A DNA stretch of 40,202 nt from an uncultured Candidatus Saccharibacteria bacterium (GTDB lineage Bacteria; Patescibacteriota; Minisyncoccia; Phycocordibacterales; CAZNKJ01), in contig CAZNKJ010000006.1 in NCBI GenBank assembly GCA_964574145.1, positions 1-40,202 of the forward strand, written 5' to 3'. Positions 5,964 through 24,728 of the stretch are shown in pieces. Positions within the stretch are counted from its first letter, which is position 1, and the number at the start of each line of letters is the position of its first letter. A program made the position numbers and the translations under genes. The notes beneath the pieces are model-generated. The model saw only the letters and a program-made list of their open reading frames with translations. It was not told where the DNA came from and searched no databases.

Positions 5964-7382
5964 TTAAATACCGTAGTTGTTTTTTAGGTAATTTTTTACT
6001 GTGTATGAACCTTGTAAGGTTGAGTATTTTTTACTTGCAATAAGGCTTTTATCAACATCTTTCCAGTCTTCTCCTTTAGTGATCTTAAAATACAATGCAT
6101 CTTTTATATAAGTCTCAGGAAACCAAAATGAATTGAACTCTACAAATGTTTTAAATATTTCTTTTTCTGAAAACCCTTGTGACGCCATAAGCTGAACCAA
6201 CCCCAATGCTGAGTATCCATGAGAACAGTCTGGTGCTGCAGTAGAATTACCACAACATGGACGATACGCATTTTCTGCAACCTTTTTTGCAAGTACCTGC
6301 TCTTTTGAAGAAAGAGTAAGAAGTGATGTATCACCATAACCAGCACGACCTACTCCTATGTCATAGTTTGTAAAATATTTAGAGAATGGGCTGTCTGTTA
6401 AAATTTGATTTTCATTATGCTTAGCAAATGTCCACAAGACATACATCATAAACACAGCGTTATCATTGTTAATTGAAAGATTAGCATCTTGTCCATTTAA
6501 TATGGCGCGCCATTGTGGCTTCATTTCCTGCCCATATCTATTTTTTAAAATATTTTCCAATTTAGCTGGATCAAGTACTCCTGCTCTAACCATTTTTGCA
6601 ACAATACCACCCCATCGCACAGACGTCTCAAATCCGGCTTCTGGTGTTACTGTTTTGATAACTTTATTTATATCAATCTTCTCACCACTGTCAGTCGTAA
6701 TAAAACCATTTTGAGAACCAAAATTTGTGTTTGAAGGTCCTGCAAAAACCGTGAACAGTTGATAAGCAAACAAAGACACTACCAAAATAACAATGACTAT
6801 AAGTTTTTTATCCAAGACATTATTCTTTTCTTTTCTTTTCGGTGAAAACTCTTCATTAGAAATCTTCATAGAACATGAGATGCACTTCTTTTCATACAAA
6901 CTTTTTGCAACAAGATAAAGACCCAGTGAAAGAAACACTAACCCTCCTACCTGAATCCAAAAGATCCAAGGGATTAAAAAAGCAAGCTGAGCGGTGAATA
7001 CATTCCCAAACGCAAGAAAATTAATACCCAGACATGCTGGACAAACAGCACCGAATATACCTGTGGTCAAACCTGCAGCAGTCGCTGTTTTACCTTTAGT
7101 CCCAGCTTTAACTTTCAACTTCATTGCATGTATTGTCACTGTTATAATAAGAGCCGAGACAAATGCAGAAAAAGCCATGTAAAAAAATTCAAAAGATGAA
7201 ATCGGAGTCATTCTATAAAAACCAAGTACCCCTTCTGGCATTGGTATCGTAAAAAGCCCATAGAAAAAACCATAAAGTCCTAAAAAGAAACCTAGAGCTA
7301 TAAAAAATATCAAAAAATTTATACGTTCTTTAAAGATAAGAATAACATTTGCGACAATGTTGTAGATACTACTTTCTTTCAT
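5964..7382 (-). CDS. Cys-rich polytopic membrane protein with extracytoplasmic CC...CxHG domain
   Basis: About 5 hydrophobic helices, CPAC within the TM region, CISC in a loop, and C-terminal YRPCCGNSTAAPDCSHG. Confidence 0.7.
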   Translation of the reverse strand: MKESSIYNIVANVILIFKERINFLIFFIALGFFLGLYGFFYGLFTIPMPEGVLGFYRMTPISSFEFFYMAFSAFVSALIITVTIHAMKLKVKAGTKGKTATAAGLTTGIFGAVCPACLGINFLAFGNVFTAQLAFLIPWIFWIQVGGLVFLSLGLYLVAKSLYEKKCISCSMKISNEEFSPKRKEKNNVLDKKLIVIVILVVSLFAYQLFTVFAGPSNTNFGSQNGFITTDSGEKIDINKVIKTVTPEAGFETSVRWGGIVAKMVRAGVLDPAKLENILKNRYGQEMKPQWRAILNGQDANLSINNDNAVFMMYVLWTFAKHNENQILTDSPFSKYFTNYDIGVGRAGYGDTSLLTLSSKEQVLAKKVAENAYRPCCGNSTAAPDCSHGYSALGLVQLMASQGFSEKEIFKTFVEFNSFWFPETYIKDALYFKITKGEDWKDVDKSLIASKKYSTLQGSYTVKNYLKNNYGI

Positions 7383-7388
7383 AATATT

Positions 7389-8141
7389 TTATATTTCTTT
7401 ATATTCAGGACTAAGCTTTTGCACCTCACGAAGTACATACATACCATTTTCTTCCACTGTTCCTATTTCCTTTTTCCAGGAAGTTGTAAACTCGGGATAA
7501 TCTCCAACATTCGGAGGAAGAATAAGAGTAGGAACTTTGTTAATAGCATATTTTCTTACAAGAGCCCTTCCTTTTACAGAAGAGATATCATAGACATTTT
7601 TATCATCTATTACCACTCCTATCTTTTTCAAGATATCTGTAAATATGTCTTCACTAAAACATTTTTTACAAGTCTTATCTTTAAGGATAACTATATCAAT
7701 CACACCCCTAACTTTCCCTTCCTTTAGATCATAATAAGGAAGTAGGTTTTCTATGATTATTCTGTCCTCCGTCTTCCGTCCTAACAATGCTTTCCACGCA
7801 GAAACAATTTTTTTATTTTCAATATCACCTGAAATAACAATAGCTGGAAGATTTTTAATATTGTACCTATCTACATATTTCTGTGAAAGAATACTCTTAT
7901 CTGAAACATGACTAACTTCATACTCAACTTTATGAGATATTTTAATCCTGTTAATAATGATATTTGCATCAAAACATTTTTCACATCTATCTTTTGGCGC
8001 ATCTAGTATAATGAATGATATTTTTATTGGAGTACCTACAATAGTGCTATAAATATTTCTTGTAAAGAATATATTTGTAGCATAAAACACCACAAGAACC
8101 GCGAGAAGTATAAAAAGTCCTCGTGTTTTGTCGTAACTCAT
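7389..8141 (-). CDS. Membrane-anchored tandem thioredoxin-like (2x CxxC) protein
   Basis: Start revised to MSYDK (ATG at 8141) to avoid overlap with the upstream gene. One N-terminal TM helix, then CEKC...YNIKNLPAIVI and CKKC...YAINKVPTLIL, each giving the CxxC plus cis-Pro pattern of a thioredoxin fold. Confidence 0.65.
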   Translation of the reverse strand: MSYDKTRGLFILLAVLVVFYATNIFFTRNIYSTIVGTPIKISFIILDAPKDRCEKCFDANIIINRIKISHKVEYEVSHVSDKSILSQKYVDRYNIKNLPAIVISGDIENKKIVSAWKALLGRKTEDRIIIENLLPYYDLKEGKVRGVIDIVILKDKTCKKCFSEDIFTDILKKIGVVIDDKNVYDISSVKGRALVRKYAINKVPTLILPPNVGDYPEFTTSWKKEIGTVEENGMYVLREVQKLSPEYKEI

Positions 8142-8145
8142 ACCC

Positions 8146-8415
8146 TTATCCACACCCTCCAACCTGACTTGGTAATCCGATCGTTCCACCCTGAGCCTGT
8201 CCACTATCAGCCTTAATAACTCCATTTGAAACAGCTCCTAGAAGCTTCTGAGTTTGATACACCTGTATACCTGACATAATCACAAGCACCACTACTACTG
8301 CAGTTAAGATATCTGATGTACTAAACTTCTTCTCATCTTTGGTTTTTATATCAGAGACAGACTGTTCATGCCCTTCCTCACACGAGGTACACACTTTGTT
8401 AATATTGTTATTCAT
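8146..8415 (-). CDS. Small single-TM protein with N-terminal CxxC and C-terminal VGGCG
   Basis: CTSC, a hydrophobic stretch ILTAVVVVLVIMSGIQVY, and an ending of LPSQVGGCG-TAA. It sits in an operon-like position. Confidence 0.7.
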   Translation of the reverse strand: MNNNINKVCTSCEEGHEQSVSDIKTKDEKKFSTSDILTAVVVVLVIMSGIQVYQTQKLLGAVSNGVIKADSGQAQGGTIGLPSQVGGCG

Positions 8416-8462
8416 TTTATTCTTAATATTTTATTATAAAATTAAAACCTATTAAAATTAAT

Positions 8463-8933
8463 TTAATGAACTTTTTTCCGAGAATTATTATATTCTAATG
8501 GGTATCCATTTTTTTTCCAGTCTATCATCCCACCAAAAAGATTTTTTATATTAACATATCCAAGATTAACGAGAGTTTGTGCGGCAACAGCACTCATCCC
8601 TCCACTCTGGCAATATAAAACAATTTTGGTATTTTTATCAGCAGGAATCTTATCTAAATTATCTAGTATATTATTGTACACAATAAATTTATCAGTATCC
8701 ATTATTTCTCCTATATAAGGCGTATGTACATTTATCAGAATAAAATCTTTCTCTTTCTTGCTTAATAGATTATAAAGATCCCTGGAAGAGATATTAGAAA
8801 AAGTATTCACTTTTTTAATATCTGTTTCATTAACACTTGTTGTAGGATTCCTAGCGCCGTTCTTTGAGAAAGCAAACCACCCGCCAACTAAAACCACTAT
8901 CACTATAATGCCGATGATTAATTTAATATTCAT
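8463..8933 (-). CDS. Membrane-anchored rhodanese-like (sulfurtransferase) domain protein
   Basis: KIVLYCQSGGMS active-site loop, NLFGGMIDW motif and an N-terminal TM helix. Confidence 0.9.
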   Translation of the reverse strand: MNIKLIIGIIVIVVLVGGWFAFSKNGARNPTTSVNETDIKKVNTFSNISSRDLYNLLSKKEKDFILINVHTPYIGEIMDTDKFIVYNNILDNLDKIPADKNTKIVLYCQSGGMSAVAAQTLVNLGYVNIKNLFGGMIDWKKNGYPLEYNNSRKKVH

Positions 8934-9047: not shown

Positions 9048-10142
9048 TTAAATATTTTCAATTGTGACATCATGGACTGTCTTCATAACGTCACTAATAG
9101 ATTGAAGTTTGCGCGCTCTGTCTTGCAAATCAGTATCTTCTTTTTTACTCTGCGAAGCTCCCCATGAAAGACTAAGAACATCTATTTCCTTCTTCACTTT
9201 TTCAGTATTATTTTTCGTAAAAAATGTATACCACGGAAATTTTATGTTTACTTTATCTTTTCCTGAAAGTTCCACCAAAGCTACCAAGTTTACTGGGATA
9301 AACCCAAAGAGCTTTGCTGGTTGCTCATATTTCATTGTGGTTTTTCCAAGATCTAATGAAACACTTTCTATATTTGCATCACTGAGCACCGTGGCTCCGA
9401 CAAAATCAAGAAAATCTTCTCCTTTAAGAATATCCTCAGGACTAATAGTCATTTCTTTTTTATCTCCATCCCAACCACGCACCACGACCTTGCCATCTTG
9501 TACTTCTTTTCTCACTTTATTTCCGTCAACGACAATCTCTTTTGACTTTCCGTCAAGATATTTATCTGAATCATTGTTGGATGTTGTGCTATTGCCATAT
9601 CCATCATTATTTATATTCACATCAACACTTTCTCCGTCTATGCCTTCTAACTTCAAGAAAGAATCCAATGCCATTTTTGTTTCCTCATCATTTAAATCCA
9701 CAAATACATCAAAAAACGAATCTGTGATATCACCATCTTCTACTATCTCATTTCCAGACTCATCAATAGCTCCTTCTACATCAAGATTTTCTGAATCACC
9801 AGAAGAGCTTGTCTCTTCTTCCACAACGCCATCTTCAACATCTTCGGAATCCATTTCATTTTCTGTCTTATCTTCCACGTCCTCTTCAGAACATTCTGCA
9901 AATTCACAATCTGGTCCGACCCTTCCAACGCTAGAGCCATCGGCGCAAACTTTTGCATCTTCTGTGCAAAACACTGTATCTGATTCTTCTGATGACTTAT
10001 TCTCTGTATCTCCTGCTGTACCCTCTTCATCAACTTCAACTGACGAAGCTTCATTTGAAGATGTAGAGGTAACATCAGTATGAGCAAAAACCATACTCGG
10101 AATAAAAATAGCCAATACAGTCAATGTCTTTAATATATTCAT
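9048..10142 (-). CDS. Secreted acidic protein with a Cys4 module and mosaic of short injection-machine-like motifs
   Basis: Signal peptide, CTEDAKVCADGSSVGRVGPDCEFAEC, acidic linkers, MALDSFLKLEGIDGESVD, VVVRGWDGDKKE, a PAKLFGFIPV...KFPWY domain, EIDVLSLSWGASQS and a terminal QSISDVMKTVHDVTIENI. Confidence 0.8.
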   Translation of the reverse strand: MNILKTLTVLAIFIPSMVFAHTDVTSTSSNEASSVEVDEEGTAGDTENKSSEESDTVFCTEDAKVCADGSSVGRVGPDCEFAECSEEDVEDKTENEMDSEDVEDGVVEEETSSSGDSENLDVEGAIDESGNEIVEDGDITDSFFDVFVDLNDEETKMALDSFLKLEGIDGESVDVNINNDGYGNSTTSNNDSDKYLDGKSKEIVVDGNKVRKEVQDGKVVVRGWDGDKKEMTISPEDILKGEDFLDFVGATVLSDANIESVSLDLGKTTMKYEQPAKLFGFIPVNLVALVELSGKDKVNIKFPWYTFFTKNNTEKVKKEIDVLSLSWGASQSKKEDTDLQDRARKLQSISDVMKTVHDVTIENI

Positions 10143-10267: not shown

Positions 10268-11668
10268 CTACTTCTTATTTAGTTTTGGAGCTATTACTGT
10301 AATACCTACTGTTTTCTTAGTAAATAGTTTTTTTTCATTAAAACATATTAGGGTGATACTCATATCATTTATGACAGGATATATTACCTGCTCCCCGGAA
10401 GTGCTTTTATAGTATTTTCCATCTCTAAGAGGAAACTGGGGAAGAGGCCAATCATCATGCGCAGTACAAAATGTTGCTCCTTTTGAAAACCATACTATTT
10501 TTACCCTCTCACCATAATTCACAATACTTGGACTAACTGCCAATGTAAGTTGGGGTGGAATATTTTTTTGGTCACTTAGTTTTTTACTATTATTTTCTTT
10601 TTCATTAGGAGTCTGATCGGCTGAGTCTGTTGAACTCACAGGCTTAAGAGTAGAAATAATTAAAGACTTCCTTCTTTCCCCTCCTGGTCCAAAACAAACC
10701 ATGCTGAAAACTTTAGTGGTTTTCAAATTATTTACTGTAAATTTTCCATTAACCTTTAAATCACCTGACCATTTTGTTGTACCCTCTTCCGCTTTACAAC
10801 GGTCAGCATTTTTTACTTCCCAAGAAAGAGAAACTGTATCCCCAGGAGAAATCACTTTTTTATCTACTGTAAATATTATCTGCGGAATAGGGGTTGTGTT
10901 CTTTAAGAAATTTTCCCTTCGCTTACCAAAATCAGCATCCCTACTGTTTCCAGCAGTATCAGACCCAAATGGATCTCCATTGCCTGAGACTCCGCCTCCT
11001 TCTGGGTTAGCAGAATCACTCAAACTTACGTCCACCACACTCAAATCTAACGATCTGTCTATAGCCCCTATCGCAGGACCAACAGCAAGACCTATTGGAC
11101 CCAGTGCAATACCAAAAACAACTCCAGCGAGACTAACACTGGCAGTTGTTTCAATTCCTATTTTTCCTGTTTCAGGATTTATTGAAAGACTTTTTTCAAC
11201 TCCAAAAAAACTAGATATTTTCCCTAACACAGAATTATCCCAGTCCTCTTTTTCTGCTAATGCCTGCGCATAACCTTGTCGGTCCACAGCAGAAATACTG
11301 TCATTAAATGGATCGTTATCAGTCTCATCAATGCTCGTATCATCTTCACCCGGATCATTAATATCAGTTTCTGTACTTCCTAAGTCATTAAAACCACCAC
11401 CGACTCCTGGAGAACCGACTCCACCTGCTCTTCCTGTTCCTCCATCACTGCTACTATCACCCTTACCATCTACTCCTCCACCAAAACCACCACCTACTCC
11501 TGGAGAACCGACTCCACCTGCTCTTCCACCCCCAATGTCACTACTACTATCATTTCCTCCGCCATCTCCTCCCCCTCCGCCATCTCCACCTCCATAGACA
11601 AAAACAGGGATAAAGAGAGAAACAACAATCACTGGCGCTAAAATTCTGAAAAATCTTTTTTGAATCAT
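10268..11668 (-). CDS. Secreted protein with Gly-rich N-terminus, glycine-zipper hydrophobic segment and two Ig-like domains
   Basis: Signal peptide, GGDGGG/GGVGSPGVGGGF repeats, LAGVVFGIALGPIGLAVGPAIGAI, and two P.I.F.V....I..G..V.L.W....A..C modules. Confidence 0.75.
   Translation of the reverse strand: MIQKRFFRILAPVIVVSLFIPVFVYGGGDGGGGGDGGGNDSSSDIGGGRAGGVGSPGVGGGFGGGVDGKGDSSSDGGTGRAGGVGSPGVGGGFNDLGSTETDINDPGEDDTSIDETDNDPFNDSISAVDRQGYAQALAEKEDWDNSVLGKISSFFGVEKSLSINPETGKIGIETTASVSLAGVVFGIALGPIGLAVGPAIGAIDRSLDLSVVDVSLSDSANPEGGGVSGNGDPFGSDTAGNSRDADFGKRRENFLKNTTPIPQIIFTVDKKVISPGDTVSLSWEVKNADRCKAEEGTTKWSGDLKVNGKFTVNNLKTTKVFSMVCFGPGGERRKSLIISTLKPVSSTDSADQTPNEKENNSKKLSDQKNIPPQLTLAVSPSIVNYGERVKIVWFSKGATFCTAHDDWPLPQFPLRDGKYYKSTSGEQVIYPVINDMSITLICFNEKKLFTKKTVGITVIAPKLNKK
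11390..11527. repeat. 45-bp intragenic direct repeat (11390-11434, 11483-11527), 1 mismatch
   Basis: aaaaccaccacc(g/t)actcctggagaaccgactccacctgctcttcc, encoding GRAGGVGSPGVGGGF, with a 93-nt period. Confidence 0.9.
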
Positions 11669-12149: not shown

Positions 12150-13121
12150 CTAGGATATCTCTGTAATTAAATGACTCAAAAATTCGGGGAGAGAACTTCC
12201 TACAGCAGAGAGAGCTCTGGGAACTAGTGATTCTTCCGTGAGCCCAGGTAAGGTGTTTACTTCAAGGAAATATATACCATCTGAAGCGATAATAAAATCT
12301 GATCGTGAATAATGACGTAATCCAAGTATTCTATGTACTTCACAAGAAATATACTCCAGGTTCCTTTTTTCTTCCGGATTAAAACGCCCTGGACAAATTT
12401 CTTCCGCAGCCCCACCATACTTTGCATCATAGTCAAAAAATGTACGTCCAGCGTGCGGTACTATTTCAATAGGAAATAATGGATAAATATCCTTTCCTCG
12501 AAACTGTTCAACCACCGCACATGTGGCTTCTCTCCCTTTTATATACTCCTCAATTAATATCCGTGGAGAATTCTCAAAACCTTTTTCCACAATAGAAAGC
12601 AAGTCTTCTTCGTTCCAAACAATACTAACTCCCATAGAAGAACCCCCCGTCAGTGGTTTTACAACAAAAGGCTTCTGTAATCTACTAGCTGCCTTTGTTA
12701 CAGCATCTTCAAAACCAAAACCGGGAGTGACTACTGAGTGACGAGCAAATTTTACTCCAAGATCTTCCGAGTAAGATTGTAAGGTTCTTTTAGTTAAAAA
12801 CTTATTCATGCAAATAGCCGAAGCACTTACCCCAGAACCTGTATAAGGAACACAAAAAGTATCTAATATTTTTTGCACAGTTCCATCTTCTCCATATTCT
12901 CCATGCATTGCATTAAATACAACATCTTTTGTTGATAAAATAATCGCAGGCTCTTTAGGTAATCCTTTTTCGTGCCACACCCCCTGTTTATCAATCAATA
13001 TATCAATCGCTTTATATTTAATCGGATCAAGATTGTTAAGAACAGCCGCTCCTGTTTTTAGAGATACGTCATATTCACTTGATGGTCCTCCACGTAAAAC
13101 TGCGACCTTAATTTCATTCAT
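12150..13121 (-). CDS. ddl: D-alanine--D-alanine ligase
   Basis: GGPSSEYDVSLKTG, AMHGEYGEDG, GSSMGV, YDAKY and LEVNTLPGLT motifs. Confidence 0.95.
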   Translation of the reverse strand: MNEIKVAVLRGGPSSEYDVSLKTGAAVLNNLDPIKYKAIDILIDKQGVWHEKGLPKEPAIILSTKDVVFNAMHGEYGEDGTVQKILDTFCVPYTGSGVSASAICMNKFLTKRTLQSYSEDLGVKFARHSVVTPGFGFEDAVTKAASRLQKPFVVKPLTGGSSMGVSIVWNEEDLLSIVEKGFENSPRILIEEYIKGREATCAVVEQFRGKDIYPLFPIEIVPHAGRTFFDYDAKYGGAAEEICPGRFNPEEKRNLEYISCEVHRILGLRHYSRSDFIIASDGIYFLEVNTLPGLTEESLVPRALSAVGSSLPEFLSHLITEIS

Positions 13122-13177: not shown

Positions 13178-14425
13178 CTATCTTTTTAAAATCTGATCGC
13201 GACTACTACGATGATATCTAACAGCAAAACGATGAGCCTCACTATTTGCCAACAAAATTGAAACCTCTTGTTCTTTAATATTTTTCTTATTACCAAGAAT
13301 TTCTCGCGGTTTATGTCTCTCGTTCTTTACAACTGAAACAATAGGAATGCCGTAACCAAACTCTTTAAGAATTCGTTTTGCGACGGAAACCTGAGCCTTT
13401 CCACCATCGACTACTATCAAATTAGGAAGTCTCCACTCATCATGATTTAATCTACGACGCAACACCTCTGCTAAAGCGGCTGTGTCATTAGCACAATCGA
13501 CAGAACGTATTTTAAACTTTCTATAATCAGATTTTTTAGGTTCAGCATTTTCAATGACCACCATTACTCCTACTATATTTTTCCCACTCATATGAGCTAT
13601 ATCGTACCCCTCTATTCTAAATATGCTGCTATTGCGAGAAAGTTCTCGTACTTCACGTTTCAGTAAAGTCACATCATTTATATGTTTTAAGGCAAATAGT
13701 TGCCGTTTAACAGTATTGGCTTTTTCAAATTTCTGATTTTTTGCATAAACTTCCATATCTCGTCTTAATTGAACCATAAGCTTCTTTTTCTTCCCTTCAA
13801 GAAAGAGTTTGATGTGTTTAATAGTTTTACTATATTCTCTTTTTGTTATAGCTCCTGTACACACTCCAGGACAAAGGTTAATTTGTGCATTGAAACATTG
13901 CTTATTTTTAATTTTCTGTTTTGCGTCAACTGACGGATGACAAGTATCTCTGAAAGGAAAAATTTTTCTAACTATGCGTATAGCCTCTTTTAAAAGTTTT
14001 CCTTCTGGGAACGGTCCAAATATATTTTTTATCTCTTCTGTTTTAAATCTTTGACCAAGTTCCCTTCCACGCACAATTAAAACACGGGGAAATGTTTCTC
14101 GAGTAATTACCAAGTAGTTATAACTTTTATCATCCTTTTCCCTGACATTATAAATAGGTCTATGAGTTTTTATAAGACTGGCCTCAAGAATAAGTGCCTC
14201 AAGTACTGAGTCAGTCTGCTGATACTCCACATGCTTTATTTCTGATACCATTTTTGAAATTGCAGCACTGCGAGTTTCCCCTATATCTTCGTTAAAATAA
14301 CTTTTGACACGATCCTTCAAAGAAGTTGCTTTCCCTATATAAAGCAATCTCTTTTGAAAGCCGAGAAAAAAATATACACCAGGAGTGTTTGGTATTTTTT
14401 TGATCTGTGGATTGTTTACTTTCAT
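13178..14425 (-). CDS. uvrC: Excinuclease ABC subunit C (short form lacking C-terminal HhH domain)
   Basis: GIY-YIG (PGVYFF..LLYIGKA), a Cys cluster, a UVR helix, and RNase H-like IEGYDIAH, VDGGKAQ, AHRFA. The protein ends right after these. Confidence 0.9.
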   Translation of the reverse strand: MKVNNPQIKKIPNTPGVYFFLGFQKRLLYIGKATSLKDRVKSYFNEDIGETRSAAISKMVSEIKHVEYQQTDSVLEALILEASLIKTHRPIYNVREKDDKSYNYLVITRETFPRVLIVRGRELGQRFKTEEIKNIFGPFPEGKLLKEAIRIVRKIFPFRDTCHPSVDAKQKIKNKQCFNAQINLCPGVCTGAITKREYSKTIKHIKLFLEGKKKKLMVQLRRDMEVYAKNQKFEKANTVKRQLFALKHINDVTLLKREVRELSRNSSIFRIEGYDIAHMSGKNIVGVMVVIENAEPKKSDYRKFKIRSVDCANDTAALAEVLRRRLNHDEWRLPNLIVVDGGKAQVSVAKRILKEFGYGIPIVSVVKNERHKPREILGNKKNIKEQEVSILLANSEAHRFAVRYHRSSRDQILKR

Positions 14426-14496
14426 ATTTAATAATAGAGTGTAGAATTAAACTTTAGAGAGTACTATAGCTATAAATACAACATTAGGGGGTAGAA

Positions 14497-14949
14497 ATGC
14501 AACACATAGTCGCTAAGAGTTGTCGTACTGAGTTAGTCTCGGTATTTGGTTTCCTTCAGAATCTACAAGCAACTGACGAAAGTATTAGAGAGTTATTGAA
14601 AGGCAATCACTTAAATAAGACTACTTTCAAACTAATCCTTGCTTTTGCGCGGGGTTTGGACAAAGTCAGTTATAAATTGGAATATTTGAATTATGACATG
14701 GCAACCAGAGTATTGTGGTTAATTTTCAAAACTCACTTTTCTAACAATGAGAACCTATGGCACCCTTTATTCAAAGAGAAAGCCGGGTATTCACCCAAAC
14801 TGGTTGGAAGATGCGAATCTGAGGACATTATTTGGGATCAAATCATCCCACCTGTTGCACTGCTGATAATTCAACTCAAATCTACACTACCTTCTCACGC
14901 AGGAGGATTGCCAGAGAGAATTCCTGATGTATTCATTGAGGCGGACTAG
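14497..14949 (+). CDS. Hypothetical protein (orphan)
   Basis: 150-aa ORF filling the uvrC-uvrA gap, with an AGGGGG SD-like element. Its stop overlaps the uvrA stop by 4 nt. Confidence 0.65.
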   Translation: MQHIVAKSCRTELVSVFGFLQNLQATDESIRELLKGNHLNKTTFKLILAFARGLDKVSYKLEYLNYDMATRVLWLIFKTHFSNNENLWHPLFKEKAGYSPKLVGRCESEDIIWDQIIPPVALLIIQLKSTLPSHAGGLPERIPDVFIEAD

Positions 14950-17555
14950 CTCCGCCTCAATACTTTTTTTAGATACTTACCTGTATAGGACTCTTTTGAC
15001 ATAGCTACTTCTTCCGGAGTTCCTTTTGCTACAACTTTTCCTCCACTCTCTCCTCCATCCGGTCCAATATCTATAACATAATCTGCATTTTTTATTACAT
15101 CCATATTATGTTCGATAACAACAACAGTATTTCCTCGATCAACTAGTTTCTGAAGTATTTCTATTAGTTTTTTTACATCTTCATAATGAAGTCCTATCGT
15201 TGGTTCATCTAATAAGTATATTGTTTTCTGTAAATGAGGCCTATAAAGCTCCGCTGAAATTTTTACTCGCTGCGCTTCACCGCCAGAGAGTGTGGTTGCA
15301 GACTGTCCGAGTTCTAGATAACCAAGTCCTACTTCGTTCAAAGTATCAAGTCTGTCATAAATAGCTGGAATATCTTCAAAAAAAGCCAACGCTTCTTCAA
15401 TCGTCATTGTTAAAATGTCGTATATATTTTTTCCTTTATATACCACCTCCAAAGTCTCTTTCGTAAAACGTTTTCCTCCACAAATATCACACATGACATA
15501 CACTGTCGGCAAAAAATGCATCTCAACAGCAATCGTACCGTTTCCTTGACAAGCCTCACACCTTCCTCCTTTCACATTAAACGAGAATCGCCCCGGCTTC
15601 CATCCACGAGCCCTCGCCTCATTAGTTTCAGCAAACAACTCTCTAATAAAAGTAAAAGCGCCAGTATACGTAGCTGGATTTGAACGTGGCGTACGTCCAA
15701 TTGGAGATTGATCAATTAATATTGCACGACTAAGATACTCTGTCCCTGTTACTCTTGCAGCATTATAAATCTCCGCGCTTCTATATTTACGCTCATACCT
15801 TGCTCGTAGATTTTTATATAAAATCTCATAAAGTAAGCTGGACTTCCCAGACCCCGATACCCCTGTAATAATAATAAGACGACCAAGTGGAATGTCTATA
15901 TTCATATTTTGAATATTGAAAACCTTTCCACCTGTAATACTTACAACTCCCTTCTTACCGTCCCTACGTTTCTTTGGTAATTCTATAACCTTATCCCCAC
16001 GAAGATAGTCTAATGTTAAAGATTTTGATGTATTACGCTTTGCGGTTAATAATTTCTCCAAATCATCTGAAACCACCACTTCCCCACCATGGATACCAGC
16101 ACCGGGACCAAGGTCTACAAGATAGTCAGAAGAATAAATAGTGTCTTCATCGTGTTCAACTACAATAATGGTATTTCCGAGATCTCGAAGATTAATTAAT
16201 GTTTTTATCAAGCGATCATTGTCACGCTGATGAAGTCCGATCGTGGGTTCATCAAGTACATACAAAGCCCCCACAAGTCCTGAACCTAGCTGACTAGCTA
16301 GACGAATACGTTGTGCCTCTCCTCCAGAAAGCGTATTCGCGCGTCTATCAAGAGTAAGATAATCAATACCAACATTAAGCATGAACTGTAAACGATTTTG
16401 TATTTCCTTAACTACTATTTGTGATATGTCTTTTTGCTGATCACTAAGTATAAGAGAGTCTATAAATTTTTTTGCATCCTTAATGGAAAGAGAAGCTAGG
16501 TCAGTGATGTTTTTTCCTAGTCCTTTTTCATCATTTTTAAGATATACACGTAAAGCCTCCGAACGTAAACGAGCTCCATCACAATCCGGACATTTTTCTT
16601 TTCCAAAAAAATACTTTGTCCCCAGTCCATTACATAGAGAGCATGCTCCGTATGGTGAATTAAAAGAAAATAGACGTGGCTCTACTTCCGGAAATGAACT
16701 ACCGTCTATGGCACAAATAAACTTGGATGAAAAAAGCTTAATGTCTCCAGTTGAAGACTCTATTTTGACAAGTCCTTCGGACTCACTGAGAGATCTTTCC
16801 ACACCCTCAGACAGCCTTTCTTTGGCATCGCGCGCATTTCGCTCAAATTCACTAATAAAAATCTCATCCACTAAAACATCGATATCGTGTCGCTTATTCT
16901 TTGACAACACAATCTGTTCACGAAGGCTACACTTCTTACCATCTACGCGCACATACTGATATCCTTTTCCTAACAAATCATATAATAATTGGTAATACTC
17001 ACCTTTCCTCCCCACAACCACAGGAGAGTAAATACCAATCTTTAGTTTGCTATACTCTATCCCTAACACTTTCTTTGTTGTCTTTTTGACACTGGTTTTT
17101 ACAATCGTGTTCATAATAACTTTCATAATTTCATTATGTGAAAGTTTTTTAATCGGAATATCATGATTCAAACAATACGGCTGTCCCACACGCGCATACA
17201 AAATACGCATGTAGTCATAAATTTGCGTTATTGTTGCAACAGTGGAGCGAGGGTTATTTGAACGACTTTTCTGATCTATTGAAATTGCAGGAGACAAACC
17301 AGTAATCTCATCAACATCTGGTTTTTGCATTTGATTGATAAATTGACGAGCATAGGCAGAAAGAGATTCAACATACCTACGCTGTCCTTCTGCAAAAATA
17401 GTATCAAAAGCAAGAGAAGATTTTCCAGACCCAGAAAGCCCCGTCATGGCAATCATTTTATTACGTGGAATTTTAACTGTGATATTTTTTAAGTTATGAG
17501 TCCTCGCCCCTTTTACAAGGATTACATCTTCCGATGTTATTTTTTTCTTATTCAT
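14946..17555 (-). CDS. uvrA: Excinuclease ABC subunit A lacking the insertion domain
   Basis: GARTHNLK, two Walker A motifs (GLSGSGKSS, GVSGSGKSS), two LSGGEAQR signatures and the C-terminal zinc finger. Start revised to MNKKK (17555). Confidence 0.95.
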   Translation of the reverse strand: MNKKKITSEDVILVKGARTHNLKNITVKIPRNKMIAMTGLSGSGKSSLAFDTIFAEGQRRYVESLSAYARQFINQMQKPDVDEITGLSPAISIDQKSRSNNPRSTVATITQIYDYMRILYARVGQPYCLNHDIPIKKLSHNEIMKVIMNTIVKTSVKKTTKKVLGIEYSKLKIGIYSPVVVGRKGEYYQLLYDLLGKGYQYVRVDGKKCSLREQIVLSKNKRHDIDVLVDEIFISEFERNARDAKERLSEGVERSLSESEGLVKIESSTGDIKLFSSKFICAIDGSSFPEVEPRLFSFNSPYGACSLCNGLGTKYFFGKEKCPDCDGARLRSEALRVYLKNDEKGLGKNITDLASLSIKDAKKFIDSLILSDQQKDISQIVVKEIQNRLQFMLNVGIDYLTLDRRANTLSGGEAQRIRLASQLGSGLVGALYVLDEPTIGLHQRDNDRLIKTLINLRDLGNTIIVVEHDEDTIYSSDYLVDLGPGAGIHGGEVVVSDDLEKLLTAKRNTSKSLTLDYLRGDKVIELPKKRRDGKKGVVSITGGKVFNIQNMNIDIPLGRLIIITGVSGSGKSSLLYEILYKNLRARYERKYRSAEIYNAARVTGTEYLSRAILIDQSPIGRTPRSNPATYTGAFTFIRELFAETNEARARGWKPGRFSFNVKGGRCEACQGNGTIAVEMHFLPTVYVMCDICGGKRFTKETLEVVYKGKNIYDILTMTIEEALAFFEDIPAIYDRLDTLNEVGLGYLELGQSATTLSGGEAQRVKISAELYRPHLQKTIYLLDEPTIGLHYEDVKKLIEILQKLVDRGNTVVVIEHNMDVIKNADYVIDIGPDGGESGGKVVAKGTPEEVAMSKESYTGKYLKKVLRRS

Positions 17556-17714
17556 AGTAATGAGAAAGCACCCCCTTAATGGGGGTATGAGTCTACACAG
17601 CACAGTCTACTATCTTTTTTATCCACAAACAACGACTATTGAAAAACTCCCTCAGGAGTACAATTACTAAAGGTATCTAGAATATAAAAATTATTAACTC
17701 ATAAAAAATACTAT

Positions 17715-17927
17715 ATGGACCGTCAAGACAACATTGAGATTAGTTACAATCTCTATACAGTAATATCAGCGGGAATTTTTTTATTCCTAGCAGGACTACA
17801 TAGCTTACGTGCTTATTATCAATGGGATTTAATTCTTAATACTTGGTCAGTACCAATCTGGGTTTCTTGGCTAATAGTACTTGTGACTTTTCTGATGTCA
17901 ATTACAGCAATACGCAAATTACGTTAA
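17715..17927 (+). CDS. Small two-TM membrane protein
   Basis: 70 aa, two hydrophobic helices, followed by a strong terminator. Confidence 0.7.
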   Translation: MDRQDNIEISYNLYTVISAGIFLFLAGLHSLRAYYQWDLILNTWSVPIWVSWLIVLVTFLMSITAIRKLR

Positions 17928-17928
17928 C

Positions 17929-17979
17929 AAAATAATCAAAAATCCCCTGCATTTTATGCAGGGGATTTTTGATTATTTT
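17929..17979. terminator. Perfect 24-bp inverted repeat, probable bidirectional terminator
   Basis: aaaataatcaaaaatcccctgcat-ttt-atgcaggggatttttgattatttt between convergent stop codons. Confidence 0.85.
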
Positions 17980-17981
17980 AA

Positions 17982-18353
17982 TTAGGCAGAAATTACTTCC
18001 TTAATCTTACTACTTACTTCGTCAAGAGTAAAATTTGATTTAATCATAAAGTCAGAAGCTCCTAATTTTACCCCCTTATCTATATCTTCCTGTTGACCTA
18101 AGTTTGAAAGAATTATAACCGGAATATTTTTTGTTTCGTCTTTTCCTTTAATAGCCGACAAAACATCAAAACCACTCATCCCAGGCAACAATAAATCCAA
18201 CAAAATTACATCTGGATGTTCACTAGCTGAAAGAGCTATAGCCTGCTCCCCTTCAGTAGCATGCAAAACTTGCCAACCTTCTTTTGTAAGCTGTTGTCCA
18301 AGCATATCCTTAAGAAGAGTGTCATCTTCTACTACTAATACTTTTTTATCCAT
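17982..18353 (-). CDS. Single-domain response regulator (receiver only)
   Basis: VLVVEDD, LLDLLLPGMSG and the conserved Lys. No output domain. Confidence 0.95.
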   Translation of the reverse strand: MDKKVLVVEDDTLLKDMLGQQLTKEGWQVLHATEGEQAIALSASEHPDVILLDLLLPGMSGFDVLSAIKGKDETKNIPVIILSNLGQQEDIDKGVKLGASDFMIKSNFTLDEVSSKIKEVISA

Positions 18354-18458
18354 AATTTTAAACTATTTATCTAGTAAATTTTTATTGTTCTTTATATTTA
18401 AAAGGTTTTTCTTTTCTGACTTTAATACTATTAATACAAAGACTCTACTAATATAGTA

Positions 18459-19925
18459 CTATTTTTTCTCTTCCGGCGCGACACTTCCCGTAATCGGTAT
18501 AGTGAAGAAAAAAGTAGTCCCTACTCCCTCCACACTCTCAAACCACATTCGTCCTCCATGATAATTTACAATATTTCGTACTATAAAAAGACCTATACCA
18601 CTACCATCATTTCTTTTCTTTTTAGCTTCTGAGGACCTGAAAAACTTTTGAAAAATATGCTGCTGAGCTTTCGGAGAAATTCCAATTCCATCATCTTTCA
18701 CTGTAACAGTCAGCCTTTTATGATCATTTACCAAAGAAACAGTCACATGCCCCTCATCCTTACCATACCTAATAGCATTTTCTATCAAGTTACGAATAAC
18801 CCAACGAATACGCTCTTTATCTACATATACTTTCGGAAATTCTTCATTGGCGTGATCAAATTGCAACGTAATTTTATTTTTCTGCGCAAAAGTTTTTTCT
18901 TCCTCTATTGTATTCTCAATCTCTTCCTTCAAGGAAAGTTCTTCACGATGAAAACCAAACTTACCCTGTTCTATACCGGCAGCACTCAAAAGCTCACCAA
19001 CAATAGACACAAGCTCTTTTGTTTTTTCAAGAGCTCTTTGCAACAGCATACGTTGATCTTCTTTAAGATTATCACCTCCACTTAGAAGAGCGCCTAATGC
19101 CCAATTGATACCAGAAAGTGGTGTTCTCAATTGGTGTGCTGTGGTGGAAATGAAATCTGATTTTGTCTCAGAAACCACTTTGTCATGCTCTATAGTTGAT
19201 TCAATACGATGAGCCACATCACTGAATGATTCCAAAAGTTCTCCAAAGCTTTCGTCATTATTTGACTTTATTTTTTTATCTTTTGCTTTTTCATCTACCT
19301 CTTCAACACCACTTAACACATCTTGAATTTGTCGAACAGGCTTCATAAAGAATTTACGGATAACTAAGAAAAACAATAGTCCAAAAAGTCCGAAAGCAAC
19401 AAGAAGAAGAAATGTTTGCTGAGTAGCAACAATAATAGCTGGATCAATAAAATAAGATTGATCAATCTCCGTCCACAAAAGCTTATCATTGCGACCTAAA
19501 TATGAGATTTCCACAACACGTTGTTCATTTTTTACATCAAGTCTTATGGACACTTCCCCCCGCCTACCCCTTGGAATTTTTTCTATCACAGCACTATTTA
19601 TCTCCTCTGAATCCGTACTGGCTATAATGTCGCGCGACTGAACATCAACAAGACGAAAAAAGTTTACTCCAGGTTCTTTATTACCCACCCCCTCAAGAGA
19701 ACTCTGTAAAAAATGCTTGGATAAATTTGTTGAGGAGGCGTTTGTATATATTTCATTTTCAAGAATCGTCTTACCAAGTATCTCTATCATCAAAACTCTC
19801 TCATTGAATATTTGATTCAAAGTTGTTTTATAGACGATGCGTCCAGACAAATATACTGAAAATGCCCCTATGACAAGAGCCAAAATCAAAATACTTATAG
19901 AAAAATTTTTCAGAAAAAATTTCAT
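18459..19925 (-). CDS. Membrane sensor histidine kinase
   Basis: Two TM helices flanking an extracytoplasmic domain. H-box TAHQLRTPL, N-box NLIENAIRY, and G boxes DDGIGI and GSGIGL. Confidence 0.95.
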   Translation of the reverse strand: MKFFLKNFSISILILALVIGAFSVYLSGRIVYKTTLNQIFNERVLMIEILGKTILENEIYTNASSTNLSKHFLQSSLEGVGNKEPGVNFFRLVDVQSRDIIASTDSEEINSAVIEKIPRGRRGEVSIRLDVKNEQRVVEISYLGRNDKLLWTEIDQSYFIDPAIIVATQQTFLLLVAFGLFGLLFFLVIRKFFMKPVRQIQDVLSGVEEVDEKAKDKKIKSNNDESFGELLESFSDVAHRIESTIEHDKVVSETKSDFISTTAHQLRTPLSGINWALGALLSGGDNLKEDQRMLLQRALEKTKELVSIVGELLSAAGIEQGKFGFHREELSLKEEIENTIEEEKTFAQKNKITLQFDHANEEFPKVYVDKERIRWVIRNLIENAIRYGKDEGHVTVSLVNDHKRLTVTVKDDGIGISPKAQQHIFQKFFRSSEAKKKRNDGSGIGLFIVRNIVNYHGGRMWFESVEGVGTTFFFTIPITGSVAPEEKK

Positions 19926-20488
19926 ATTTTTATTGTAAGATGCAAATACTCTCTATGTATAAAGACTACAATATAACTAAAAGAAACAAGAAGTAATGAC
20001 TCCCCAACAACAAGAATAGGCTCTGAAATCAATCGTTCATTCATATACCTCCAAAATATAGCAAAAGATCCACTACCATATACTATCATCATCAAAAAAT
20101 TTATTTTTAATTTTCTAGAACTTAAATTCAAAATCTTAAATAATAAGAAACAAACAATAAAGAATAGTATTATTTGAGACAAAAGAAGAAAAGTCATCAA
20201 ATTCATAAATATATTTGAAAATACACCAATCATTTGTCCCCACCAAAAAAATTTCAATATTATAAGCGCAAATAGAGAGAAGGAAATACCGAACCAAACA
20301 GGTTTATTTTTTACATTATCAAAAATAAGAATATTAACACTTTCAATAAATCCAAGAAAAAGAACTACGACAGAAAAAGCTTCAGGAATAAGACATAAAC
20401 ACTGCACCTGTATTCCCCACGCATGAGCAGCCACTTTAAAGATGTCGGGAATATTGGCTAAAGAAATAGTGGTCAATAAATCTCCCAT
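19922..20488 (-). CDS. Polytopic membrane protein, translationally coupled to the kinase
   Basis: About 5 hydrophobic helices and an ATGA overlap with the kinase start. Confidence 0.7.
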   Translation of the reverse strand: MGDLLTTISLANIPDIFKVAAHAWGIQVQCLCLIPEAFSVVVLFLGFIESVNILIFDNVKNKPVWFGISFSLFALIILKFFWWGQMIGVFSNIFMNLMTFLLLSQIILFFIVCFLLFKILNLSSRKLKINFLMMIVYGSGSFAIFWRYMNERLISEPILVVGESLLLVSFSYIVVFIHREYLHLTIKI

Positions 20489-20489
20489 A

Positions 20490-20948
20490 TCATTTTTCTC
20501 TTATACCTAATGAAGAAGTTCCTGAAGAAATTATTTCTCGAAAAACACGAGAAAGAAAACCTACAAATACAAAAGTGGCTAAAACAAGTAACGTGGACTC
20601 AGTCAACATTCCAGAGTAAATTTTATCAATTAGAAAAAATACATCTTGCGAAAGGAAGATTATACTTAATGAAATTACCAACGCTCCTAGAGACAGTGAG
20701 ACTATTGAAGTCTCCATAATAGAATGGGTCCGAAATAATGTAGATATCCATAAAAAGCCTCCCGTCAGAGATAGAACTGTCCAAAATATCATTGATACTA
20801 GCTGTCCCTCCATGGAAAAATTTTGAATATATTTGATATCTTGAGAAATAAGAATATTAGGAGTTAAAATATTTCCAAAAACATAAAACACAGTCAAGAT
20901 ACTCAAAATAAAGCCGACTGTTCCTAGGATAAAAAAAGATCTCTCCAT
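20490..20948 (-). CDS. Four-TM membrane protein
   Basis: Four hydrophobic helices and a 1-nt gap to the next gene. Confidence 0.7.
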   Translation of the reverse strand: MERSFFILGTVGFILSILTVFYVFGNILTPNILISQDIKYIQNFSMEGQLVSMIFWTVLSLTGGFLWISTLFRTHSIMETSIVSLSLGALVISLSIIFLSQDVFFLIDKIYSGMLTESTLLVLATFVFVGFLSRVFREIISSGTSSLGIREK

Positions 20949-21044
20949 TACTTGTTATTTATAAATAATTAATTACTCTACACTACTTGTATCATAGCGA
21001 AATAGACAACATAAAAAAATAGGTAGTGTCCCCACAAAGATTTA

Positions 21045-23513: not shown

Positions 23514-24728
23514 TTATCTTTTGTATGAAGACAGAAAATCTTTTTTAAAATTCTCAAAACGGTTTTCAAGTATAGCTTCTCTCGCCCGTTCTACCAGATG
23601 AGTGAGAAAATAAACATTATGAAAAGAGACAAGCATAGCTCCAAGCATTTCTTTTGCACGAAAAAGATGCGCTAGATACGCTTTTGAGTATTGAGAGCAA
23701 GTGTTACAAAGACACTTCTCATCTGGCTTAGAAAAATCACTAATATACTTGTTGTTAAATAAATTTATTTTGCCGCTGTGTGTATAAAGTACTCCATTAC
23801 GAGCTAGACGTGTTGGAGTAACACAGTCAAATAAATCTACTCCTTTTTCAATACCAGAAAAAATATCTTCCGGCTCTCCTATTCCAAGCAGATGACGTGG
23901 TCTCTCCGGTGGCAACTCCTCACATACCCAACCAACAGCTGTATCTAAATCTTCTTTTATATAAGATCCTCCAATCCCAAAACCATCAAAATTCATGCTT
24001 CCTATCGTGCGCGCACTCTCACGTCTAAGCTCTTCATGTCTACCTCCTTGAACTATCCCAAAAAGCGCCTGCTTATTTTGTACATCTGTATTCTGTCTGT
24101 GAGCAGCCAAACTACGCCTTCCCCAAAGATGAGTTCTGGCTAGAGCCTCTTTTTGATATACATAATTTGCTGAAGGAGAAGTACACTCATCAAAAGCAAA
24201 CATTATATCAGCGCCAATATTGTGCTGAATCTCAATAGACCGCTCGGGAGTAAAGCGATGAAAACTTCCATCAATGTGAGACGTGAAAGAAACTCCTTCT
24301 TCATCTACAATAGCGAGGCGTCCATGTTGACTTGCTATATTTTTATCATATACACTAATTCCTTCTTTCTCCTCATCTCTCTTAGCAAGCTTACTCACGT
24401 GCACGCCAAATGCAGCACCAAGAGAAAATACTTGGAATCCTCCAGAATCAGTCATTAAGGGACTTTGCCAGTTCATAAAAGAATGCAAACCTCCAACTTT
24501 TTTTATAAGCTCATCACCTGGTTGGAGATAGAGGTGATAAGTATTAGCGATAATGACTTGCGCTCCTGCTTTTTTTACATCCTCTGGTTGTAACGCCTTA
24601 ACCGTTCCCTTAGTACCAACAGCAACAAAAGCTGGAGTCTTAATATCGCCATGCAAAGTAGAAAGTACACCAGCTCGACCCCCCCATCCTTTGAGTTTCT
24701 CTAAAATTTTAAAAGAAAAATTTTTCAT
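23514..24728 (-). CDS. tgt: tRNA-guanine transglycosylase
   Basis: NTYHL, TDSGGFQ, GIVQGG, DLFDCV and the zinc site CLCNTC...HN. Confidence 0.96.
   Translation of the reverse strand: MKNFSFKILEKLKGWGGRAGVLSTLHGDIKTPAFVAVGTKGTVKALQPEDVKKAGAQVIIANTYHLYLQPGDELIKKVGGLHSFMNWQSPLMTDSGGFQVFSLGAAFGVHVSKLAKRDEEKEGISVYDKNIASQHGRLAIVDEEGVSFTSHIDGSFHRFTPERSIEIQHNIGADIMFAFDECTSPSANYVYQKEALARTHLWGRRSLAAHRQNTDVQNKQALFGIVQGGRHEELRRESARTIGSMNFDGFGIGGSYIKEDLDTAVGWVCEELPPERPRHLLGIGEPEDIFSGIEKGVDLFDCVTPTRLARNGVLYTHSGKINLFNNKYISDFSKPDEKCLCNTCSQYSKAYLAHLFRAKEMLGAMLVSFHNVYFLTHLVERAREAILENRFENFKKDFLSSYKR

Follow-up and report, generated by a model that had tools for sequence, protein, structure and literature searches.

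Tube, spike and needle subunits of bacterial injection machines are the closest described counterparts of the protein presented here. The tube protein Hcp (PF05638) and the spike protein VgrG/gp5 (PF04717, PF05954) carry no Sec signal, while the needle subunit SctF (MxiH/PrgI/YscF; PF09392) is a free protein of about 80 residues exported by the type III secretion system (T3SS). Two further precedents concern architecture. In known short-linear-motif mimicry by viral and bacterial effectors, the imitated motifs are those of eukaryotic hosts, comprise 3-10 residues and have known binding domains, and surface proteins of single-membrane bacteria, such as those of the WxL, GW and SLH types, combine a constant wall-binding C-terminal domain with a variable N-terminal part. 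Here we describe P0001, a protein encoded on the minus strand of a 40,202-nucleotide stretch (the window) of contig CAZNKJ010000006.1 from an uncultured Candidatus Saccharibacteria bacterium. We are highly confident that it is an exported protein in which a constant, folded C-terminal module is joined to an acidic arm of movable cassettes resembling strands of injection-machine subunits, the parent folds themselves not being rebuilt.

A sequence-only reading of the window had proposed a signal-peptide protein whose acidic linkers are interrupted by six short motifs, some of them mimics of Hcp, VgrG and T3SS needle segments. The open reading frame at 9048-10142, with its 364 residues, bears out part of this description, and the five motifs that had been given coordinates correspond exactly to residues 139-150, 157-174, 219-230, 319-332 and 347-364. 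Read from the sequence, the N-terminus appears to be a Sec-type signal with a putative cleavage point between VFA and HTD, and it is conserved among relatives (mean majority-residue fraction of 0.66 over 22 rows).

P0001 belongs to a large family. A word-indexed search returned 45 proteins, the query included, and a full HMMER scan started from their alignment, with clusters defined at 50% identity, reached 2425 representatives at E<=1e-3, a number that falls to 1451 at 1e-10 and to 276 at 1e-30. P0001 aligns to the family profile over positions 1-335 with an E-value of 2.2e-97 and has all of its invariant or nearly invariant residues. Neither Pfam nor NCBIfam holds a model of this family, whose members are named 'hypothetical protein' in their sources, apart from two that received the automatic JGI name 'Hcp'.

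The C-terminal part of about 165 residues is constant throughout the family. It comprises, in order, KEIVVxG, VxVRGWDPxKKE, a helix, four strands with NIExVS...Y.QPAKLFGFIP, VKVKFPW[YW], a slot of variable content and a terminal helix with the signature S-N-x-L-K-x-x-H-D...I-x-N-[IM]-[KR]. In P0001 the core contains KEIVVDG, VVVRGWDGDKKE, the PAKLFG motif and VNIKFPWY, and its invariant or nearly invariant positions are R222, G223, W224, D225, K229, Y272, A276-G280 and F302-W304. Over 125 aligned rows, W304 is invariant, and S350, K354 and H357 of the terminal helix are kept in at least 90%. This order is not absolute, as the RGWD motif follows the PAKLFG motif in P0028 instead of preceding it, and P0158 carries a ITDSFFDVFVDL-type cassette within its core, at the place usually taken by the RGWD motif.

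Ahead of the core, residues 21-200 contain 32% Asp and Glu and only 4% Lys and Arg. A four-cysteine module of the pattern CT.DAK.C.DG..VGR..P.CEF..C interrupts this acidic arm; it is found in many, not all, homologs, occurs in three copies in P0049 and belongs to no Pfam family, its only match being DUF6129 at E 0.19. The first of the two arm cassettes, ITDSFFDVFVDL, keeps S142, F143 and F147 in at least 90% of the 22 rows, and no parent for it appeared in the results of the Pfam and PDB searches. The coordinates of all these features are listed in Table 1.

Table 1 Features of P0001, with positions counted along the window (pLDDT, predicted local distance difference test score)
Feature	Residues	Position	Strand	Basis or remark
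Exported cassette protein P0001, 364 residues	1-364	9048..10142 (stop codon included)	minus	Open reading frame and translation
Putative Sec-type signal peptide: MNILK start, hydrophobic core and VFA ahead of the probable cleavage point	1-20	10083..10142	minus	Sequence reading
Acidic, probably disordered arm	21-198	9549..10082	minus	Composition; pLDDT mostly <50
Four-cysteine module	58-85	9888..9971	minus	pLDDT 82-84, short strands (AlphaFold2)
Cassette ITDSFFDVFVDL	139-150	9693..9728	minus	Conservation 0.67
Cassette MALDSFLKLEGIDGESVD, apparent copy of the Hcp N-terminal strand	157-174	9621..9674	minus	PDB phmmer; conservation 0.65
Constant alpha/beta core	199-312	9207..9548	minus	pLDDT 86-96
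VVVRGWDGDKKE (VVVRGWD motif), best-conserved core motif	219-230	9453..9488	minus	Conservation 0.89
Core strands NIESVSLDLGKTTMKY, weakly like a late Hcp strand	257-272	9327..9374	minus	Family profile
VNIKFPWY, invariant-Trp motif	298-305	9228..9251	minus	Similar to strand 1 of the OB domain in gp5/VgrG
Slot cassette EIDVLSLSWGASQS, apparent copy of the Hcp second strand	319-332	9147..9188	minus	Pfam T6SS_HCP
C-terminal amphipathic helix	338-364	9051..9131	minus	Helix 338-363, pLDDT 86-94

Within P0001 itself, the likeness to injection machines is to Hcp, and the sequence comparisons confirm it for two of the motifs for which it had been proposed. A 46-residue piece around residues 157-174 matched four PDB chains at E<=10 with phmmer, and all four are Hcp (3v4h_A with E 0.0095, 5xhh_A, 5xeu_A and 4tv4_A); the alignment covers Hcp residues 1-22 and keeps the Met-Ala ahead of the strand. 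The C-terminal 60 residues, which include residues 319-332, match the 129-position Pfam profile T6SS_HCP (named for type VI secretion systems, T6SS) with E 0.0057 and 17.4 bits over profile positions 13-51, and P. aeruginosa Hcp1 over residues 25-41 (E 1.6). With the whole protein as query, the same profile gives 15.1 bits and E 0.028 over positions 13-44, located after the core. Every Pfam Hcp match of P0001 alone lies below the curated cut-off of 23.5 bits.

The other parts of P0001 gave less. Pieces containing ITDSFFDVFVDL, VVVRGWDGDKKE and the strands of residues 250-310 had no Pfam match at E<=10. The VxVRGWD motif had been likened to VgrG and phage late-control proteins, a claim that the searches do not support, given this absence of Pfam matches for the fragment and of any VgrG among the PDB matches of the family profile; the VgrG-like pieces of the family are other motifs, such as the constant VNIKFPWY, to which positions 7-24 of the Phage_base_V profile align in relatives. 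The family profile aligns the NIESVSLDLGKTTMKY stretch to Hcp1 residues 122-140 with at most 2.2 bits, non-significant when taken alone. We also tried the core as a diverged C-terminal half of Hcp and rejected it, as the alignments were all non-significant and the fold search contradicted it.

The fragments become clearer across the family. We searched two sets of members against the 24,736 models of Pfam, one consisting of the 45 proteins (E<=0.1) and the other of P0001 with 124 new representatives no more than 50% identical (125 proteins; E<=0.01); apart from P0001, which is in both, the sets are disjoint. T6SS_HCP was matched by 15 members of the first set (best E 3.1e-8) and 16 of the second (best E 8.5e-10), Phage_base_V, the OB domain of VgrG/gp5, by three (best E 1.6e-7) and five, and T3SS_needle_F by three (best E 3.2e-6) and one. 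The first set also contained two matches to DUF6484 and single ones to Gp5_C, Gp5_trimer_C, Phage_GPD and HrpF, with all remaining families at one member each; the second contained two to Phage_GPD and, for PKD-type domains, 15, 12 and 6. Aside from these PKD-type domains, the only recurrent Pfam families are those of tube, spike and needle proteins. The expectation that the family would score against Hcp, VgrG-OB and needle profiles is borne out by E-values down to 8.5e-10, 1.6e-7 and 3.2e-6, respectively. Against all PDB sequences, the family profile yielded five matches at E<=10, of which four contain P. aeruginosa Hcp1 and the fifth, 7y6c_F, is a 43-residue chain from a T3SS needle complex entry (E 0.71).

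Wherever coordinates are available, the Hcp and Phage_base_V matches are fragmentary. The best-scoring stretch covers no more than 46 of the 129 Hcp positions, examples being Hcp positions 1-28, 13-40, 55-74 and 55-85 and Phage_base_V positions 48-73 and 10-66. In P0158, the first two Hcp strands are copied over 32 residues, and this stretch aligns with three solved Hcp proteins (best E 0.0044). The VNIKFPWY-equivalent stretch aligns with Phage_base_V positions 7-24 in P0052 (E 0.035) and, together with the slot, with positions 10-66 in P0035 (E 1.6e-7). Further VgrG-like pieces in relatives are of the VKVKFPW, ENSSxWxRV and EVLVxFxxGDPDRPI types, accompanied by the hub piece QxNxSDxEF and by gp5-type repeats, and repeats of the IIIVGG type are also present in some arms. 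PHROGs returned weak fragment matches only, to phrog_27303, a group of unknown function whose length and matched regions suggest to us that it is Hcp-like; its positions 116-140 match the NIESVSLDLGKTTMKY-equivalent stretch of P0166 (E 0.0039).

Other recurrent arm cassettes have no recognised parent. Members in the range P0014-P0169, for example P0036, P0039, P0115, P0119, P0148, P0166 and P0035, carry GGTEDINIGxGE, KLNPQPDPPS, IEFTLxPDRIE and, in up to four copies, (R)LLPTVNK. These may be copies of conserved stretches in proteins that are still to be recognised.

The cassettes are not fixed to one place in the protein. Comparing the slots of 167 members with the arms of others, in an unsupervised test that used no predefined motifs, we obtained 623 high-scoring segment pairs at E<=1e-3, originating from 66 slot proteins, whereas in five rounds with shuffled slots the counts were 0, 1, 3, 1 and 1. 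Segments common to slots and arms include the gpD-type QxNQ[ST]DLEF, the OB-type EVDDEVLVGFENG and the Hcp segments DKAxPKL and KIGDIKGES. This control also bears on whether the likenesses arise by chance, that is, whether strand-like words of a low-complexity acidic protein merely score against large Pfam families. Such an artefact would account for the sub-threshold scores of all matches made by P0001 alone and for two of the proposed parent families having given nothing for P0001. It would not account for member scores of 34.4, 32.0 and 27.7 bits against the 24,736 models (E 3.1e-8, 1.6e-7 and 3.2e-6 per protein), for the recurrence of functionally related injection-machine families alone, besides the PKD type, in two otherwise disjoint sets, for the uniformly Hcp identity of the four PDB matches of the 46-residue piece, or for the gap between real and shuffled slots. 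We regard an origin by chance as hardly credible: the family Pfam matches, the Hcp-only PDB matches and the shuffle controls bring it close to refuted.

Duplication and reordering are likewise widespread. Scored by dot-plot, an internal duplicate of a 10-mer (score of at least 40) is present in 32 of 165 arms and in 0.0 per round of shuffling, and 29 of the 57 arm pairs with two or more common segments show an inversion of their order. Individual pieces cross the core: the segment of Hcp positions 55-85 precedes the core in P0024 (residues 87-116) and comes after it in P0015 (residues 365-384), while Hcp positions 13-44 follow the core in P0001 and positions 6-27 precede it in P0030. In a close subfamily of 22 sequences, the arm cassettes are conserved at 0.65-0.67, nearly as well as the core (0.69), in contrast to the linkers at 0.30-0.32. 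Both the predicted swapping and reordering of motifs between genomes and their presence in homologs, as conserved islands within hypervariable linkers, were therefore observed. Because the cassettes are conserved, moved, duplicated and order-inverted while the linkers vary, we consider them to be selected units.

This behaviour also bears on a descent from a fused or rearranged VgrG/Hcp-like gene, in which erosion of a contractile-injection gene for a spike or tube would have left P0001 as a plain adhesin or wall-associated protein, its motifs being ancestral remnants that no longer serve any mimicry and its arm merely a bearer of adhesive modules. The pieces of the P0023-P0035 subgroup succeed one another as QxNxSDxEF, RGWD, VKVKFPW and EVLVxFxxGDP, which we take to be the order in VgrG (two of the segments being placed through the solved chain 9mlp_A), the constant core itself bears Hcp-like and OB-like strands, and modules known from surface proteins (PKD, FG-GAP, Big or TSP3) are present in some arms. 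Functionless relics should nevertheless decay, whereas the arm cassettes are conserved like the core and the adjoining linkers are not; neither would relics be expected to duplicate in tandem or to cross the core. Moreover, the Hcp and VgrG pieces are interleaved instead of being arranged as two former genes, and no remnant of a parent fold is seen in the models. An eroded spike or tube gene is thus unlikely in our view.

P0035, a cassette-rich member, allows another possibility to be weighed, a working miniature spike or tube in which pieces from several copies of a Sec-exported protein would come together as a ring of the Hcp type or a trimer of the VgrG type. All pieces of one OB domain are present in this protein, repeats of the gp5 and IIIVGG types are found in some arms, and folding upon assembly would be invisible to monomer prediction. 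In the VgrG-like chain 9mlp_A, the two OB segments adjoin (443-466 and 468-488). In P0035 they occupy residues 103-126 and 390-410, 265 residues apart and on either side of the core, and they fail to meet in the model, where residues 101-122 have pLDDT values below 50 and residues 384-403 are helical. The subsets of pieces also differ among members, so that no fixed fold could be rebuilt, and P0001 has the Sec signal that Hcp and VgrG lack. Finally, the absence of secretion genes noted near P0001 extends to its whole genome (689,285 bases in 27 contigs, completeness 100): among the four families searched, PF04717, PF09392 and PF05954 had no match at E<=1 and the sole match of PF05638 was the P0001 gene, so that no VgrG spike, OB-domain or needle gene accompanies it, sheath, baseplate and other T3SS families lying outside this search. 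We consider a working miniature machine very improbable.

The predicted structures agree with the division into a constant and a variable part. In the AlphaFold2 model of P0001, residues 200-364 have pLDDT values of about 84-96, with a dip to 63 in the loop at 331-340, and the two arm motifs are drawn as short helices at 67-68. The model of the cassette-rich P0035, based on 150 sequences, likewise has values below 50 in the arm and near 90 in the core. Both models draw the slot cassettes as helix and pack the terminal helix onto the core with high confidence. The slot of P0001 is drawn as part of the first of two terminal helices (313-328 and 338-363); other members carry different cassettes there, and by drawing the EIDVLSLSWG stretch as a helix the model may average over the different cassettes that occupy the variable slot of the family. 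The motifs, all described earlier as interruptions of acidic linkers, turn out to be of two kinds: residues 139-150 and 157-174 do lie in the arm, whereas KEIVVDG, VVVRGWD, EIDVLSLSWG and the C-terminal helix are in the modelled domain. Membership of one ordinary fold, which would have made the motifs plain structural parts, accordingly applies in part to four of the six.

A Foldseek search with the P0001 model gave a best E-value of 0.19 in the PDB (350,542 chains) and of 0.51 in BFVD, with neither Hcp nor VgrG among the listed PDB matches. An ESM Atlas search with the core was uninformative, its best score of 0.86 being to unnamed clusters. The models and the fold search agree with the view that no parent fold is complete: as predicted, neither model forms an Hcp or VgrG fold, and the core is without a recognisable solved relative.

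The C-terminal hairpin raises a further question, as it had been likened to the terminal helix of T3SS needle subunits. This was not confirmed for P0001 taken alone, which matched no PF09392, and is seen in relatives, if below the cut-off. In P0027, residues 240-300 align with positions 9-71 of the 71 in PF09392 (E 3.2e-6, 27.7 bits against a curated cut-off of 29.4) and with residues 18-84 of the 86 in YscF (E 0.58). As a side observation on the terminal hairpin, to which the C-termini of P0027 and P0149 also belong, residues 306-358 of P0001 weakly matched FliE in the PDB (E 0.61) and no needle protein; together with a match of P0030 to HrpF (E 0.062), this hints at a likeness to the helix type of T3SS-exported axial proteins and not to needles alone.

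An almost entire needle subunit in the last 60 or so residues of P0027 would suit a self-assembling surface fibre or matrix, in which sticky strand cassettes are kept soluble by acidic linkers and polymerise with the needle-like hairpin. The product would be a filament, a coat or an amyloid-like matrix, and the likeness to tubes, spikes and needles would reflect the same polymer-building job instead of recognition of foreign machines. Needle subunits self-polymerise with their N-termini outward, an arrangement that would be compatible with a large N-terminal passenger. The gene stands alone, without partner genes, and amid the Asp and Glu residues its cassettes are alternating hydrophobic strands. 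Self-assembly would not, however, need cassettes that stay near a consensus from outside the family over deep divergence; the content, number and order of the cassettes vary so widely that they are hard to fit to one conserved lattice, and the terminal helix is packed onto the core in both monomer models. On balance, we find a self-assembling fibre or matrix doubtful.

The comparison with the described systems can now be drawn. As in Hcp, P0001 has an N-terminal strand copy (residues 157-174; Hcp 1-22) and a second-strand copy (residues 319-332; profile positions 13-51), and relatives add the DKxSPKL helix segment (profile positions 55-85) and a weak match to a late strand. Unlike in Hcp, these fragments occur in altered order and in repeated copies, with unrelated sequence between them, and no β-barrel forms in the models; P0001 differs from Hcp in profile coverage and score, which stays below the cut-off, in having a Sec signal in place of Sec-free export, and in the absence of T6SS genes among those searched in its genome. 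With VgrG/gp5 the family shares OB strands, the hub piece and gp5-type repeats in relatives, and VNIKFPWY at the place of Phage_base_V positions 7-24; P0001 has no OB or hub profile match, neither model contains an OB barrel, and the OB pieces of P0035 are far apart. Like SctF, the family ends in a helix-turn-helix, which in P0027 spans nearly the whole profile. This hairpin is, however, the tail of a 364-residue Sec-exported protein and not a free small subunit, its first helix is the variable cassette slot, and P0001 is set apart from SctF by score and by its gene context, no neighbours being conserved in 20 loci.

With short-linear-motif mimicry, as that concept is generally understood, the family has in common conserved islands within disordered, fast-evolving linkers, which are duplicated, reshuffled and similar to functional parts of proteins from another organism. 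The family cassettes differ in being 10-30 residues long and in corresponding to structural strands of bacterial injection machines. The signal peptide, variable N-terminal region and constant, aromatic-rich C-terminal domain recall WxL, GW and SLH proteins, from whose anchor domains P0001 is separated by the lack of any sequence or fold match in Pfam, NCBIfam and Foldseek. Our survey of the literature, which did not extend to supplementary family lists, turned up no account of motifs from Patescibacteria that resemble Hcp, VgrG or the needle. By cut-offs, folds, context and export route, P0001 falls outside Hcp, VgrG and SctF alike; at most, it would function as a mimic of their segments.

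The family is one of ultrasmall bacteria. In a species-level genome collection, all 19 loci encoding relatives belong to Patescibacteria or to unclassified metagenome-assembled genomes, and the family loci include Lloydbacteria, Saccharibacteria, Paceibacterota, Staskawiczbacteria, Spechtbacterales and Giovannonibacteria. The placement of P0001 in the candidate phyla radiation is sound because of these 19 loci; an epibiotic lifestyle of this organism is assumed. Four of 301 sampled genomes of the phylum carry the family, its own included, according to a loose first filter that leaves absence from the rest unproven, and by the same filter it was not found in the listed genomes of its own order or class within this sample. 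No relative was detected among the viral contigs of IMG/VR. Across 20 loci there are no conserved neighbours: the family itself is all that the 20 have in common, and one small open reading frame recurs in three. A single copy in its own genome, the absence of conserved neighbours and the occurrence in four of 301 genomes, together with the surface-protein modules in the arms of some members, make up an accessory, conflict-type pattern.

What might such a protein do? The constant part (residues 199-364) is an alpha/beta domain specific to this lineage, with a helical hairpin after it; its most likely role is to keep the protein on the cell surface, where we assume it to be retained, or to self-associate. 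The variable part (residues 21-198 and a single slot that separates the core from the last helix) presents cassettes of 10-30 residues, several of which are near-consensus copies of the best-conserved Hcp strands, and relatives add copies of VgrG/gp5 spike and T3SS needle segments. Through strand or helix complementation, the exposed cassettes could pair with the tube, spike or needle subunits of other cells, and on contact with neighbours or hosts the protein would then serve at the surface as a decoy, a cap or a means of docking. We put this reading forward tentatively, as a possibility somewhat short of even, and regard as similarly conjectural the jamming, decoy, docking or bait roles suggested in the sequence-only reading. 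It draws on two observations. The family cores have diverged to 20-30% identity while the cassettes have kept close to the Hcp consensus, from which we infer selection by an outside partner, and a role in conflict or contact fits the accessory, patchy and fast-rearranging pattern of the family. Conflict between hosts and epibionts is made plausible by a 2026 preprint (PMC13622651), according to which actinobacterial hosts use an Esx secretion system against epibionts; it provides context and is silent on P0001.

Several points weigh against a pairing of the cassettes with foreign machines. Peptides excised from a folded β-barrel need not bind their folded parent. T6SS tubes are assembled in the cytoplasm of the attacker, beyond the reach of an exported protein. 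Two of the supposed parents went undetected in P0001 itself: the VgrG and GPD profiles (PF04717, PF05954) had no match at E<=10 for the whole protein and four fragments, and the needle profile PF09392 had none for the whole protein or its fragments. The array is only partly injection-machine-like, as cassettes of the DSFFDVF, IEHEDIG, GDPDFDLL and LPTVNK types, GNVEFEWKVEEGE and NPQPDPP are without a parent. In addition, only two cassettes of P0001 lie in the arm, and the others, placed by the model in one confidently predicted domain, may be plain structural elements.

A broader form of the decoy reading extends to the whole phylum. Patescibacteria would maintain a fast-shuffling surface library of subunit-interface peptides taken from the Hcp, VgrG/gp5 and SctF of other bacteria, used as a broad extracellular shield or grappling device that mimics subunits and thereby caps, jams or holds T6SS, tailocin, phage-tail or T3SS structures. 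We think it improbable in this full form. If true, it would represent a principle of defence or attachment not described before, as well as a natural example of new proteins arising from recombined sub-domain fragments of unrelated folds.

The family is of interest independently of its function. It comprises 2425 clusters from ultrasmall, mostly uncultured Patescibacteria, without a Pfam or NCBIfam model or a solved match for its core. Segments of 10-30 residues lifted from the Hcp, VgrG/gp5 and needle folds and used as duplicable, movable cassettes have rarely been documented in bacteria, and their behaviour bears on how proteins evolve from sub-domain fragments. Should the cassettes bind their parent machines, they would give tiny surface-living bacteria a novel means of withstanding, or of profiting from, the injection weapons of hosts and neighbours, and peptides that inhibit the assembly of tubes or needles could be drawn from this natural source.

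Turning to the surroundings of the gene, an antisense frame of 324 residues at 9109-10083 on the plus strand, rich in serine and proline, is unsupported and was taken as a shadow of the acidic coding strand. PADLOC matched none of seven proteins. The sequencing runs listed for the P0001 sequence include no RNA run, and the DNA runs are vent or other metagenomes from which this DNA may itself have come. Upstream, at 10268-11668 on the minus strand, lies a 466-residue exported protein with glycine-rich repeats of the GRAGGVGSPGVGGGF type and an acidic stretch; its two similar C-terminal segments contain one cysteine pair apiece, it belongs to no Pfam family, and it is not kept beside family members at other loci.

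Downstream, the genes at 5964-8933 on the minus strand resemble a thiol or sulfur redox set. They encode a 472-residue multi-pass membrane protein with cysteine motifs, an 89-residue cysteine-containing protein, a 278-residue membrane protein with weak thioredoxin-like matches (E 0.0015) and a 156-residue membrane-anchored rhodanese (E 1.6e-10), and might oxidise exported cysteine modules. The remaining context is ordinary housekeeping: a D-Ala-D-Ala ligase at 12150-13121, the UvrC, UvrA and UvrB genes with a histidine kinase within 13178-23072 on the minus strand, the Uvr genes being less than 10 kb apart and on the same strand, and a tRNA-guanine transglycosylase at 23514-24728.

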